Below the pieces are notes generated by a model. The model worked only from the letters and a program-made list of their open reading frames with translations. It did no database searches and was not told the DNA's origin. The position numbers were made by a program, and so were the translations under genes. Below, in pieces: positions 20,720-61,312 of a DNA stretch of 64,000 nucleotides (position 1 is its first letter; every line of letters starts with the position of its first letter). Source of the DNA: Escherichia phage UPEC01. The stretch lies in sequence record MW233709; one strand, given 5' to 3'.

Positions 20720-20727
20720 TATTTATA
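20720..20727 (-). promoter_or_regulatory. late promoter TATAAATA (gene 24)
   Basis: Octamer on minus strand 27 nt upstream of gp24 ATG. Confidence 0.7.
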
Positions 20728-20733
20728 AAAGTT

Positions 20734-20780
20734 GTTTACAACCAGATTAAGATAAGACATAATGATTCCATACTGAGTTA
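20734..20780 (+). promoter_or_regulatory. early promoter cassette G (GTTTAC, 18 nt, CATAAT, then conserved leader GATTCCATACTGAGTTA)
   Basis: Drives ORF 20805; the leader sequence recurs at 58316 and 59361. Confidence 0.55.
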
Positions 20781-20804
20781 ACAAACAAAACCTGGAGTTT
20801 AAAA

Positions 20805-21086
20805 ATGAACAAAGCAACTTTCCTTCTGAACACCTTTAAAAAATTGGAAATTGAAGTTATTGCATTGGTCAACAAATACCCAAATGGCGTTAATGGTAAT
20901 GCTCTGAACAAACTAGTTAAAAAATATGAAAACTTAGCATATGACACTGATTTCTGGTGGAATGGTAATTATTCTACTCACACTAAAGATAAAAATGGTA
21001 ACTGGTTGAAACTTCAAGAAAACAATGTTAACTTCAGAGACCTCATCAAGCGCCGGGTAGAAGTTCATTTAAATGGTATGGTATGA
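20805..21086 (+). CDS. hypothetical small protein, early gene embedded between genes 24 and 23 on the opposite strand
   Basis: 93-aa ORF with its own early promoter (GTTTAC, 18 nt, CATAAT), GGAG RBS, and a bidirectional terminator downstream. Confidence 0.55.
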   Translation: MNKATFLLNTFKKLEIEVIALVNKYPNGVNGNALNKLVKKYENLAYDTDFWWNGNYSTHTKDKNGNWLKLQENNVNFRDLIKRRVEVHLNGMV

Positions 21087-55064: not shown

Positions 55065-55101
55065 GTGTACTTTTAAATGGGATAGTGTATGATTATCCCA
55101 T
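55065..55101 (+). promoter_or_regulatory. early promoter / stem-loop cassette C (GTGTAC, 17 nt, TATGAT; ATGGGATA/TATCCCAT)
   Basis: Same cassette as A; precedes ATG 55122. Confidence 0.55.
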
Positions 55102-56566: not shown

Positions 56567-56640
56567 GGCCCTGTAGCTCAATTGGTTAGAGCATCCGGCT
56601 CATAACTGGCAGGTTTCCGGTTCAAGTCCGGATGGGGCCA
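56567..56640 (+). tRNA. tRNA with CAU anticodon (Met or lysidine-type Ile)
   Basis: Cloverleaf by hand: acceptor GGCCCTG/TGGGGCC, D-arm GCTC-AATTGGTTA-GAGC, anticodon loop CTCATAA (one U-C mismatch in stem), T-arm TCCGG-TTCAAGT-CCGGA; T4 itself carries a CAU tRNA-Ile. Confidence 0.8.
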
Positions 56641-56642
56641 CC

Positions 56643-56719
56643 CGGGGTGTAGCTCAATTGTATAGAGCAACGGTCTTCTAAACCGTAGGTTGTGGGTTAG
56701 AATCCCACCACCCCGACCA
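56643..56719 (+). tRNA. tRNA-Arg (anticodon UCU), CCA encoded
   Basis: Acceptor CGGGGTG/CACCCCG, D-arm GCTC...GAGC, anticodon stem ACGGT/ACCGT with loop CTTCTAA, T-arm GTGGG-TTAGAAT-CCCAC, then A-CCA; T4 encodes tRNA-Arg(UCU). Confidence 0.85.
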
Positions 56720-57676: not shown

Positions 57677-58231
57677 ATGAAACTGTTAAAATATTTGAGT
57701 TGGATTCTGTTAGTTCCGCTGGATTTTATCTCCATGATTCTGGCCGTTATCCTGGCTCCATTTGTAGTTCCGTTCCATAATAAAAAGACTGGTAAACTTC
57801 CGTTCGGGTTTGATTGGATGATGACTTATGATAATCCGATTGATGGTGACCGTGGTCATATCAAACGTTGGTCAAAAATCCGAAAATGGCCATTAGGTGT
57901 TTACTTCCAACGAGTAGCCTGGCTCTGGCGAAACAAAGCATACAATTTTGCTTACCACAAGCTCGGTCGTGATTGCAATTCAGAATTCCATTATAAAGGT
58001 AATCCTGATGTTGAATCTGGTTCCCCAGATAAAGCTCATCATGGATGGCTCTTTATGTGGACGGACAATGCCTGGGGTGTTTTTGCTTCTGTTCCTTATC
58101 TTAAGGTCGGTGGAATCACCTTTTATCTGCGTGTTTATTGTGGCTGGAAGCTCAAGAGCCTTCTGTCCCGACCCATCCCTAAGGCTATGCTCGCCTTTCA
58201 TATAAATCCGTTCCGCTTTTATAAGAACTAA
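57677..58231 (+). CDS. hypothetical membrane-anchored protein
   Basis: 184 aa from ATG 57677; N-terminal hydrophobic helix LLKYLSWILLVPLDFISMILAVILAPFVVPF; terminator downstream. Confidence 0.5.
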   Translation: MKLLKYLSWILLVPLDFISMILAVILAPFVVPFHNKKTGKLPFGFDWMMTYDNPIDGDRGHIKRWSKIRKWPLGVYFQRVAWLWRNKAYNFAYHKLGRDCNSEFHYKGNPDVESGSPDKAHHGWLFMWTDNAWGVFASVPYLKVGGITFYLRVYCGWKLKSLLSRPIPKAMLAFHINPFRFYKN

Positions 58232-58255
58232 CAGCCCGCATTGCGGGCTTTTTTA
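58232..58255 (+). terminator. rho-independent terminator after ORF 57677
   Basis: GCCCGC-att-GCGGGC followed by T6. Confidence 0.8.
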
Positions 58256-58291
58256 TACCCCGAATAAATTTGAAATTTTCTTCAAAAAGTA

Positions 58292-58340
58292 GTGTACATC
58301 CAAATTGTCTGGGTGCATAATGATTCCATACTGAGTTACA
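58292..58340 (+). promoter_or_regulatory. early promoter cassette E (GTGTAC, 18 nt, CATAAT, then leader GATTCCATACTGAGTTACA)
   Basis: Upstream of ATG 58373; leader shared with cassettes at 20758 and 59361. Confidence 0.5.
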
Positions 58341-58372
58341 CACTGAATCAAACAAAACTTTGGAGAAATAAA

Positions 58373-58798
58373 ATGAACTTTCTGACCCTGACCTCTGCAT
58401 TCTCTGTTACCCGCATCACTAACAAAATGGTTGCTGACGAAGTATGTGAAATCTGCATTCGTGAAGATGCACTTATCCATCTGACTTCAACCCAGATTGT
58501 TGCCATTGCCAAGTCCCTTAATTCTGAACTGAAGGTAAACACCAAACAGTCAAAAGAATCTATCATTGAATTAATCCAAGCTGAAATGATTGAATTCCCA
58601 ATTGAAGAAGTTAAAGAAGAAAAAATCCAGTCCAAATCTGGTAACGCTCGTGACATTTGCTTCCAGGCATTTGCAGAAATTGATATGAATGATAATGCAG
58701 CTCGTCGCGCTCTGATTGATGTTCTGGTTACCACCCATGATATCAAAAAGACTGTTGTTCAGTCATATGCATCCAACTTCCGCAAAGCTCAAAAATAA
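58373..58798 (+). CDS. hypothetical protein, paralog A (shared C-terminal domain with 58882..59325)
   Basis: 141 aa; C-terminal ...NDNAARRALIDVLVTTHDIKKTVVQSYASNFRK; own early promoter (GTGTAC, 18 nt, CATAAT). Confidence 0.55.
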   Translation: MNFLTLTSAFSVTRITNKMVADEVCEICIREDALIHLTSTQIVAIAKSLNSELKVNTKQSKESIIELIQAEMIEFPIEEVKEEKIQSKSGNARDICFQAFAEIDMNDNAARRALIDVLVTTHDIKKTVVQSYASNFRKAQK

Positions 58799-58808
58799 TT
58801 GAGAAAAG

Positions 58809-58858
58809 TGTTTTACTTCCAGATGGGATAGTGTATAATTATCCCATACTGAGTTACC
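58809..58858 (+). promoter_or_regulatory. early promoter / stem-loop cassette D (GTTTTAC, TATAAT; ATGGGATA/TATCCCAT) fused to the ACTGAGTTACC leader
   Basis: Hybrid of the stem-loop cassette (A-C) and the CATACTGAGTTAC leader family; precedes ATG 58882. Confidence 0.5.
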
Positions 58859-58881
58859 AAATAAACAAACGGGAAAATAAA

Positions 58882-59325
58882 ATGAAAACTTCAAAACTGG
58901 TTAAGTATGTTAAACTGGCATTAAACAACTCTTCTGAAGCTGAAGCACAATCCGCAGCACGTATGTTCTTCAAACGTCTGACAGCTGAAGGTATTTCATT
59001 TAACCCGGCAGTATTTGGTATCACTCGTGGCGAAGCTGCTAAACTGGCAACTCTGGCAGGTAAAATTTTTAAAGGTCTGAATGATGGACAGGTTAAACCA
59101 GAAGTTAAACCTACTCCTAAAGCTGAACCAAAAGCTGAACGTAAGGCACCTAAACGCTCCGGTATGAGCAACAAAGATTTATGCTATGATATGTTCAAAA
59201 CTGTTAATATGTCTAATGGTGCTGCTCGCAGAGCTGTTATTGATATGATTGTGCGTGAGTTTGGATTCAACAAAGCATCAGTTCAGTCTTATGCTTCCAA
59301 CTTCCGCAAAGAATTTGAAATTTAA
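58882..59325 (+). CDS. hypothetical protein, paralog B (shared C-terminal domain with 58373..58798)
   Basis: 147 aa; C-terminal ...SNGAARRAVIDMIVREFGFNKASVQSYASNFRK; own promoter/stem-loop cassette. Confidence 0.55.
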   Translation: MKTSKLVKYVKLALNNSSEAEAQSAARMFFKRLTAEGISFNPAVFGITRGEAAKLATLAGKIFKGLNDGQVKPEVKPTPKAEPKAERKAPKRSGMSNKDLCYDMFKTVNMSNGAARRAVIDMIVREFGFNKASVQSYASNFRKEFEI

Positions 59326-59407
59326 TTAAAAAGGGGGTATACAAGCCCCCTGCTTTAAGGCATAATGATTCCATACTGAGTTACACAATAAAACACTGGA
59401 GAATAAA

Positions 59408-59713
59408 ATGAAATTCATCATCAACCTGGCGCTTGTTGACTTTGATAAAACTGGTAATTTCGCATCTGCTGAAAATATGATTCGTAACACCAAGTTCAAA
59501 GTGCAAGTCCAACAGGCGGTAGCAAAAGAGTTCTTTACTGATAAATTAACTAACGTTGTTAATCACCTGAATGTGCAAGTTAAATTCACTCGTGAAGCGG
59601 AAACTACTGTTGCATTTGATTTTGACTGCCAATACCATGATGAATATGTTCGCCGCATCCTGGATATTGTGTCTGATGAACTTTATTATGGTGTGCAGGA
59701 AAACAAAATCTAA
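59408..59713 (+). CDS. hypothetical protein
   Basis: 101-aa ORF with GGAG RBS; preceded by the conserved leader CATAATGATTCCATACTGAGTTACA. Confidence 0.5.
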   Translation: MKFIINLALVDFDKTGNFASAENMIRNTKFKVQVQQAVAKEFFTDKLTNVVNHLNVQVKFTREAETTVAFDFDCQYHDEYVRRILDIVSDELYYGVQENKI

Positions 59714-60423: not shown

Positions 60424-60978
60424 ATGAGCTTATATACTGACCTTATATCAAATGTAGACTGGTTTGGTGGTAGTGGCCTTGCTACTGAAACTAATACAGT
60501 TCTTTATAGAATCCGTGGTGACTTGGGTTATTCCAATGATTTCTTAAGAAGAACAACAAGTCGCGGCGATACTACCAAATTGCCTTTTATTTTTGCTTTA
60601 GCTGAAGACCTTTCTTTCGCAGATGCCTTGGAAATTATTGACGTAAATCTGGGTATTCAACGAGTGGAATTCGCTGGACTACGTTATTCAGTATATGCTT
60701 TAAACGAGAGCAATGATTGCATACTTCTTAATATGGCAGATGATGATTACCATTTAGTATGTTATGTGGCGCTAGAAAATGGTGATGTATTTGGAATGGT
60801 TGACCGACGGCCAGCTTATACTGATATTAAAAATTATGATAAAGCTGAGCTTGCTATTTTGACTAATGAGTACACATTAGAATGTCATAAACAAAAACGT
60901 AAGCTTAATCGTTTTATTGCTGAATGTCGTGAATATGCTAAAGGGGTTCAAAATGCGAACGTTATATCTGCCAAGTAA
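60424..60978 (+). CDS. hypothetical protein
   Basis: 184 aa from ATG 60424 (GGAGAGGAG RBS). Confidence 0.5.
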   Translation: MSLYTDLISNVDWFGGSGLATETNTVLYRIRGDLGYSNDFLRRTTSRGDTTKLPFIFALAEDLSFADALEIIDVNLGIQRVEFAGLRYSVYALNESNDCILLNMADDDYHLVCYVALENGDVFGMVDRRPAYTDIKNYDKAELAILTNEYTLECHKQKRKLNRFIAECREYAKGVQNANVISAK

Positions 60979-61312
60979 ACCAGAAAAATTTGTATACGCA
61001 GACAAGATTGATAAAGACCTTATGCCTCCATTTGGAGCTTTGTCCATGTGCATCGTTGGGGTTATAATGATGGTGCTTTGTGGGGATATGAATATCATTA
61101 GTGTTGGAGTCGCCTGGTCACTAATAATTGCAGCACCTTTTATTACAGTCCTGAGCATGATATTGATAAATGTGTGGCATCAAAATCATATGAATAAAGG
61201 ATATCGTGGGCGAGTTAAAGAGTGGGAACAAAAATGCGTTTCCCTGCAAGAAGAGCACAAAATTAAATGTGCCGAAGAATTTATTAAGGAGGTTCGTAAT
61301 GGAACGGCCTAG
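60953..61312 (+). CDS. small membrane protein
   Basis: 119 aa from ATG 60953; two hydrophobic helices (ALSMCIVGVIMMVLCG, VAWSLIIAAPFITVLSMILINVW). Confidence 0.5.
   Translation: MRTLYLPSKPEKFVYADKIDKDLMPPFGALSMCIVGVIMMVLCGDMNIISVGVAWSLIIAAPFITVLSMILINVWHQNHMNKGYRGRVKEWEQKCVSLQEEHKIKCAEEFIKEVRNGTA

Follow-up and report, generated by a model that had tools for sequence, protein, structure and literature searches.

Two adjacent genes of Escherichia phage UPEC01 (sequence record MW233709), further referred to as p1 and p2, code for small proteins with similar C-terminal ends and dissimilar N-terminal halves, raising the question of what one and the same domain may serve for in otherwise different products. 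In the preliminary description of the stretch of 64,000 nucleotides that was analysed here (hereafter the window), such arrangement was read as suggesting a common module for binding or targeting to which different effector parts are joined. Here, we addressed how far this reading holds for the domain itself, for the genes that carry it and for the regulatory elements around them.

The gene pair and its common C-terminal domain

Over positions 58200-59450 (1251 nt) the window is 100% identical to Escherichia virus TH41, and over its final 24 kb the identity makes up 98.9%, with indels; judged by sequence, the window belongs to a T4-like coliphage of the genus Gaprivervirus, a near relative of TH41. 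The p1/p2 locus falls into an early region of accessory genes, with two tRNA genes on its upstream side and e.3/e.4-like genes on its downstream side, the gene upstream of p1 being an ORF that matches DUF7338. The tRNA genes are located side by side (56567-56719) approximately 1.7 kb upstream of the pair. The tRNA genes, the two genes of interest and their predicted parts are as follows:

56567-56642: tRNA-Met/Ile2(CAT), with CAT anticodon, assigned to Met by ARAGORN and to Ile2 in the annotation of a relative
56643-56719: tRNA-Arg(TCT)
58373..58798, plus strand: p1 gene, 141 aa, two-domain protein, PHROG 9997 (HMM E=1.5e-71, residues 1-141)
58373..58609, plus strand: N-terminal module of p1 (aa 1-79), predicted to contain three short strands and helices, acidic, strongly conserved in orthologs
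58643..58792, plus strand: p1 copy of the shared, predicted three-helix domain (aa 91-140)
58882..59325, plus strand: p2 gene, 147 aa, two-domain protein, PHROG 18416 (HMM E=9.3e-93, residues 1-147)
58882..59085, plus strand: predicted helical N-terminal module of p2 (aa 1-68), weakly DUF2786-like
59086..59154, plus strand: Lys/Pro-rich, presumably disordered linker of p2 (aa 69-91, pLDDT below 50)
59167..59316, plus strand: p2 copy of the shared, predicted three-helix domain (aa 96-145)

Both ORFs are indeed present on the plus strand within the boundaries that had been described, and both proteins contain the motif AARRA(L/V)ID.(L/I)V......K..VQSYASNFRK. Pairwise alignment of the C-terminal ends, proposed earlier as a check, revealed highly significant similarity: BLASTP comparison of p1 with p2 gives 31/73 identities (E=2e-17), the domain core of 46 residues is 50% identical (E about 1e-13, tblastn), and when the profiles of both sets of orthologs are compared with each other, the alignment is confined to the C-terminal 50 columns (probability 99.4%, E=1.6e-21), so that the common part comprises ~50 residues rather than ~45 aa as initially estimated. 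Each of the two C-terminal domains also matches the PHROG family of the other protein and phrog_17275 (E from 1e-15 to 7e-7), and tblastn search with the domain over the 64-kb window detected no copies beyond p1 and p2. The N-terminal halves, claimed to be unrelated, give no alignment even at E<=100 and differ in predicted folds, the N-terminal part of p1 being composed of strands and helices and that of p2 being all-helical.

Helix 3 of the domain, VQSYASN(F/Y)RK, is nearly invariant on all its faces in p1-type, p2-type and stand-alone members taken from phages of Escherichia, Erwinia, Morganella and Acinetobacter. Synonymous sites within this block differ between phages, including switches between TCN and AGY serine codons, implying that selection acts here on the protein and not on DNA; because of this variability, constraint on the nucleotides themselves and gene conversion are both rejected for the conserved block, with the exception of one short patch. 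The 31 nt coding for VQSYASNFRK in p1 (58757-58787) and in p2 (59281-59311) coincide at 29 positions, the remaining DNA of the domain being diverged, and this patch, too short to judge, could reflect either common codon preference or a short gene-conversion tract. p1-type C-terminal domains agree by 67% with p1-type orthologs of other phages vs 51% with p2 of the same genome, and the duplication that gave rise to p1 and p2 is therefore old. Strong purifying selection on the domain is evident in all three architectures (p1-type, p2-type and domain-only) across genera. Taken at the level of sequence comparison, the shared C-terminal domain represents an ancient, phage-restricted family carried by unrelated N-terminal modules. 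Its net charge varies from +1 to +5 in all members, i.e., it is mildly basic; the entire p2 is strongly basic, the pI of p2-type proteins being about 10, and p1-type proteins are neutral to acidic.

Attribution of the N-terminal modules to described families gave weak matches only. For the p2 module, the best scores with DUF2786 (PF10979) were 12-13 bits (E 0.04-0.17), under the gathering threshold of 23.9 bits, and such a sub-threshold match recurs in 2 of 12 p2-type proteins as well as in Yersinia phage P744 ORF038 and Serratia phage Serbin gp42. Matches of the p1 module to Rho_N/SAP helix-extension-helix families all fall under curated thresholds, and hhalign comparison of the p1 family with residues 1-66 of E. 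coli Rho was negative. Little is known about the functions of either reference family, and a search of the literature on the PHROG identifiers and on DUF2786 offered nothing functional. One depositor labelled the Lys/Pro-rich segment of p2 as "H15 domain"; since its sequence lacks conservation among orthologs, we treat it as a linker.

Both genes are overlapped by open reading frames of the opposite strand, at 58348-58746 (minus strand, 132 aa) over p1 and at 58854-59174 (minus strand, 106 aa) over p2, equivalents of which are annotated as CDS in some GenBank records (CJ20). Since the conservation pattern supports genes of the plus strand only, these look like shadow ORFs.

Promoter cassettes and stem-loops around the genes

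Separate promoters had been postulated for the two genes, and a sigma-70-type promoter-like site was found before each of them (58293-58321 and 58812-58839) as a part of its own predicted early promoter cassette. The regulatory elements predicted in the vicinity are listed below:

58233..58249, plus strand: terminator-like GC-rich stem-loop with T-run, 7 pairs including 6 GC followed by TTTTTTAT; ends the DUF7338 gene and precedes the p1 promoter
58293..58350, plus strand: putative early-type promoter cassette of p1, TGTACA-17-CATAAT (58293-58321), then conserved leader GATTCCATACTGAGTTACAC
58812..58868, plus strand: putative early-type promoter cassette of p2, TTTACT-16-TATAAT (58812-58839), then leader TATCCCATACTGAGTTACC
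59332..59366, plus strand: stem-loop GGGGG-tatacaa-CCCCC (59332-59351) superimposed on the -35 of the next cassette, TATACA-17-CATAAT; PeSL-like junction after p2
20720-20810, 58280-58372, 58800-58881 and 59330-59407: copies of the ~85-nt cassette in the window, found also at TH41 loci

Neither a terminator-like site nor a stem-loop was seen between p1 and p2, so that p2 may also be transcribed by read-through from p1. The element that is repeated comprises the -10 hexamer and the leader (G/T)AT(T/C)CCATACTGAGTTAC, occurring at 58315, 58833 and 59360; related genomes contain about 13 copies of the cassette each, 4 of which are within the window. From the promoter to the start codon, the cassette extends over ~85 nt and may be described as AAAAAGTAGTGTACA-N17-(C/T)ATAATGATTCCATACTGAGTTAC(A/C)...GGAGAATAAAATG. 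The same cassette serves all three paralogs (p1, p2 and the domain-only gene described below) together with unrelated genes, and its transcribed leader CCATACTGAGTTA is conserved also in Morganella phage MP1, representing another genus.

Promoter-early stem-loop (PeSL) cassettes are described for hyperplastic regions of T4-type phages (PMC2839356, PMC4122927), and the cassettes found here agree with the consensus of T4-type early promoters/PeSLs, TTTACW-N17-TAYWAT (PMC4122927). Like in PeSL regions, the early promoter cassette is repeated before each gene, stem-loops flank the p1/p2 pair, and related isolates differ by insertions of whole ORFs exactly between cassettes; unlike in PeSL regions, the p1-p2 interval is devoid of a stem-loop. 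The locus thus appears, from its sequence features, to be placed in the context of PeSL-type mobile regulatory cassettes, which account for gene shuffling and expression but not for the function of the p1 and p2 proteins.

A perfect 8-bp inverted repeat, ATGGGATA-N9-TATCCCAT (58823-58830 / 58840-58847), surrounds the -10 of the p2 promoter. The second occurrence of ATGGGATA-N9-TATCCCAT belongs to a cassette 3.7 kb upstream (55077-55101), making two matches vs 0.36 expected by chance, and this repeat could be either an operator or a mere variant of the cassette. No operator specific to the family was revealed in the sequences that precede 11 homologs, the similarity there being that of the generic promoter/leader cassette. 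One more repetition concerns positions 59312-59343 and 58267-58298: the last codons of p2 (EFEI and stop) reproduce the A/T-rich element that lies before the p1 promoter (AATTTGAAATTT...), which means that p2 runs with its 3′ end into the upstream part of the cassette that follows.

Occurrence and rearrangements of the modules

Neither Pfam nor NCBIfam has a model for p1, p2 or the shared domain, and the three corresponding PHROGs, namely, 9997 (p1), 18416 (p2) and 17275 (domain alone), are all annotated as "unknown function", their relatives being exclusively "hypothetical". Search with the domain by tblastn matched 45 phage records, with three places in every Gaprivervirus. Exhaustive HMMER search over 1.84 billion representative proteins yielded 13 clusters at E<1e-10, all composed of proteins of 69-198 aa and falling into p1-type, p2-type (including two divergent forms) and domain-only ones; one of the domain-only clusters resembles p1-type proteins with the middle part deleted. 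IMG/VR added 11 loci, mostly already known, and BFVD returned uncharacterised family members only. Three long repetitive proteins emerging from the exhaustive search were discarded as sums of many sub-threshold repeat matches, with at most 2.6 bits per stretch, and so were PBP_like, HrpF and CT847 effector, the matches to which were sub-threshold and inconsistent with the fold.

The third paralog, found in TH41 and other Gapriverviruses, consists of the domain alone (71-75 aa, PHROG 17275) and in TH41 is located immediately after the gene for a topoisomerase II subunit, again with this promoter cassette in front of it. Existence of the stand-alone 71-aa version implies that the domain is an autonomous unit. 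A single p1-type gene, alone on the opposite strand, is present in Acinetobacter phages 133 and ZZ1, and Rosemountvirus phages (about 52 kb) encode a p1-type protein with a divergent C-terminal domain ending with ...RVVQSYMSYYR.

p1-type and p2-type genes are neighbours in four settings, i.e., in Gaprivervirus, in Morganella phage MP1, in Erwinia phage RF1 and in metagenomic myovirus contigs of ~45.6 kb. In MP1 the order is reversed (gp117 and gp119) and an unrelated 89-aa ORF stands between them, in RF1 this place is occupied by an HNH endonuclease gene, and Gapriverviruses CJ20, TH44 and MN01 have there an extra unrelated ORF of 98 aa. In the 45.6-kb contigs, p1, a 44-aa ORF and p2 are the sole genes on their strand, enclosed between two blocks of the opposite strand. 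The p1-p2 spacer (58799-58881 in the window) is a hot spot of insertions, the pair still remaining neighbours in every case. Phage VR7 (NC_014792.1) has undergone a deletion of ~1.8 kb joining codon 62 of p2 to the sequence near position 60990 of the window (inside ORF 60917..61312), with the loss of the shared C-terminal domain of p2 and of the next three genes. As p2 is truncated after residue 62 in this viable phage, it is dispensable and accessory, and the deletion, a natural knock-out, shows the same for the other genes lost.

The N-terminal module of p2-type is encountered with another C-terminal end as well. In P744 ORF038 and Serbin gp42 (PHROG 18416, E=6e-20, residues 1-66) it is fused to the domain L..C.....ARR.LRK....W.F, which is common to two or three neighbouring genes with differing N-termini, being found also on P744 ORF036, P744 ORF040 and Serbin gp39; P744 ORF036, with a weakly Rho_N-like N-terminus, matches ORF038 in BLASTP at E=2e-7. 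Comparison of the second domain with the first one by hhalign (probability 3-6%) demonstrated no relation between them, and its comparison with PDB provided no informative match. In all five lineages having the p2-type N-terminal module, at least one other gene of the genome carries the same C-terminal domain, of either type, and the neighbouring genes of P744 and Serbin, sharing a different C-terminal domain of their own, indicate that C-terminal domains are matched within each genome. The modular build implied by the preliminary description is, hence, substantiated from three sides: by the domain existing alone (~71 aa), by the pair being kept in unrelated phage groups and by the p2-type N-terminal module acquiring another shared domain elsewhere.

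Predicted fold and possible role of the shared domain

In the AlphaFold2 model of p1 (mean pLDDT 84), three short strands and three helices make up the N-terminal module, which a disordered linker (82-89) connects to C-terminal helices 92-100, 108-122 and 126-140. In that of p2 (mean pLDDT 75), a helical hairpin (3-36) and one more helix (49-58) are followed by the disordered linker (69-91) and then by three C-terminal helices as in p1. The C-terminal domain is modelled in both proteins as a confident three-helix bundle with pLDDT of about 90. Its closest structural counterparts are BEN domains and numerous homeodomains, with similar scores reached by RecX repeats and further helical fragments, and the model may be superposed on homeodomains as a three-helix HTH fold. 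Homeodomains are also the best non-repeat sequence matches in PDB (ATBF1, E=0.03; Lhx4, E=0.3). These weak alignments place VVQSYASNYRK over VVQVWFQNRRAK, so that residues W48, F49, N51 and R53 of homeodomains correspond to Y, A, N and R, respectively; the nearly invariant N and R of the family fall, thus, on N51 and R53.

The likeness is limited to the fold. Search of 16 members against Pfam, homeodomain PF00046 included, gave no match at E<=10, and hhalign of the family against 12 homeodomain sequences gave P=0.02 and probability of 2.4%; by these values and by the PDB scores (E=0.03-0.3), true homology to homeodomains is rejected as far as sequence is concerned. As the sequence link is not significant, we call the fold homeodomain-like, or HTH, without assigning the domain to the homeodomains. 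Compared to Engrailed (1du0), Oct-1 POU-homeodomain (1pog) and MATalpha2 (1k61), the phage family has, in the weak alignments, Ala as an equivalent of F49, seems to lack a conserved basic N-terminal arm (the segment preceding the C-terminal domain is basic in some members only), is confined to phages and has a net charge of +1 to +5 vs +9 to +12 in homeodomains. As to BEN domains (Bsg25A, 4x0g; BEND6, 7yul; BANP, 7yuk), which belong to eukaryotes and to viruses of eukaryotes, the match extends over roughly one half of the chain of 108 residues, with 4-13% of sequence identity; a profile match to BEN (PF10523) and the complete BEN helical core were looked for and not found. A curious resemblance exists between the helix 2-helix 3 segment of p2-type relatives, LLCQRYGFGKASVQSYASN, and the TAL-effector repeat LLPVLCQAHGLTPDQVVAIASN. 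The TAL-effector match itself (3ugm, summed E=5e-9) was rejected as a repeat artefact, each repeat match being insignificant (at most 2.6 bits).

p1 and p2 are best explained as real, separately promoted accessory early genes, the presumed products of which are small two-domain proteins combining one of two unrelated N-terminal modules, a flexible linker and the shared C-terminal domain of ~50 residues folded into three helices. We tentatively suggest, with a probability of about 0.45 for the statement as a whole, that this domain might be an address common to both proteins for a single conserved ligand, of which nucleic acid (DNA) is the likeliest candidate, with helix 3 as the recognition helix. 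In early infection, two distinct N-terminal activities would thereby be directed to a single site, and the paralog made up of the domain alone would act just as a binder or a competitor; p2, being very basic (pI about 10), might add non-specific affinity to nucleic acids, and the acidic N-terminal module of p1 would more likely contact a protein. The choice of nucleic acid follows from the neighbours in fold space, from the invariance of helix 3 on all faces across hosts and from the basic character of p2. Against it are the charge of the domain, far below that of homeodomains, the acidity of p1 as a whole, the failure to find a conserved candidate operator specific to these genes, since upstream similarity is that of the generic cassette, and the lack of any experimental or annotated function in Pfam, NCBIfam, BFVD or among relatives. 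The preliminary reading is supported in part: the common domain on unrelated halves stands, and the predicted homeodomain-like fold with its nearly invariant helix 3 fits a common ligand, making a binding or targeting module with swapped putative effectors conceivable.

The main rival, which we regard as doubtful but deserving serious attention, assumes a protein-protein module, which either docks the paralogs on one conserved host protein (e.g., of transcription, replication or nucleoid machinery) or assembles them into one complex by homo- or hetero-oligomerisation. Many small helical early proteins of T4-type phages bind host proteins, and the only mild basicity of the domain together with acidic p1 agrees with this mode of action. 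Matching of C-terminal domains within a genome despite the differing domain type is just what co-assembly or a shared partner would predict, and a helix invariant across phages of different gamma-proteobacterial hosts is compatible with a conserved host protein. However, the structural neighbours are mostly DNA-bound domains of HTH type, and purely paralog-paralog contact would allow co-drift of the partners between lineages, whereas helix 3 is nearly invariant and the domain is retained in single-copy lineages (Acinetobacter phages and Rosemountvirus). A reading that appears improbable sees the domain as an autoregulatory HTH and the N-terminal modules as anti-defence or host-takeover effectors, as in anti-CRISPR loci, where HTH (Aca, AcrIIA1 N-terminal domain) fused or adjacent to variable effectors represses a strong early promoter. 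The p1/p2 locus would resemble this arrangement by a small HTH-like module common to neighbouring, strongly promoted accessory genes with different other halves; it differs from AcrIIA1/Aca by the C-terminal position of the module and by the absence of a detected operator, of sequence relation and of known anti-defence activity. The small size of the proteins, the strong early promoter cassettes preceding their genes, the location in an accessory, hyperplastic region, the solitary position of the module on the opposite strand in 45-kb phages and Acinetobacter phages, and the inverted repeat around the -10 of the p2 promoter are in line with autoregulation. That repeat, however, accompanies only two promoters of the window, one of them driving an unrelated gene, and is absent from the p1 promoter; no operator common to promoters of the family across phages was detected beyond the generic cassette, and no defence or anti-defence family was matched (PADLOC being outside the search).

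Even less credible is the assumption that the shared end is just left over from a tandem duplication, or from gene conversion of recent date, followed by replacement of the 5′ half, and has no common function today. It is suggested by adjacency of the genes, by PeSL-like cassettes, which promote recombination in such regions, and by the patch of 29/31 identical nucleotides; the duplication is, however, old by the 67% vs 51% comparison, DNA outside the patch is diverged, and purifying selection on the domain in all three architectures across genera makes a functionless remnant unlikely.

p1 and p2 make up an uncharacterised small-domain family of a familiar kind, i.e., modular early accessory phage proteins with an HTH-like domain encoded in a hyperplastic region of PeSL type. 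This is fairly ordinary modular gene evolution, of modest interest unless the matched exchange of addresses proves to be general, and in case the domain is just another small HTH, the catalogue is supplemented with one more Pfam-less domain family. At the same time, a concrete, testable handle is obtained on three ORFan families (PHROGs 9997, 18416 and 17275), which belong to those early genes of T4-like and other virulent enterobacterial phages that still await explanation, and if the domain does bind one conserved ligand, its identity would point to a host or phage target addressed by several unrelated lineages with two different activities. The matched-domain pairs of P744 and Serbin suggest, besides, a general rule for evolution of such accessory modules.

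A bolder extension, for the time being rather unlikely, is that we deal with a recurrent phage system with a small number of N-terminal activity modules (p1-type, p2-type/DUF2786-like and HeH-type), all of them guided to a single target by a C-terminal address that can be exchanged, the exchange affecting every paralog of a genome together. The address would be the VQSYASN(F/Y)RK domain in Gaprivervirus, MP1, RF1 and the 45-kb phages and the unrelated ARRxLRK...W.F domain in P744 and Serbin. If true, it would represent a new modular system of host takeover or regulation, and the homeodomain-like address would be a new DNA-binding family of prokaryotic viruses. The genes with the second domain, itself without annotation, are located in these two phages just upstream of a helicase gene.
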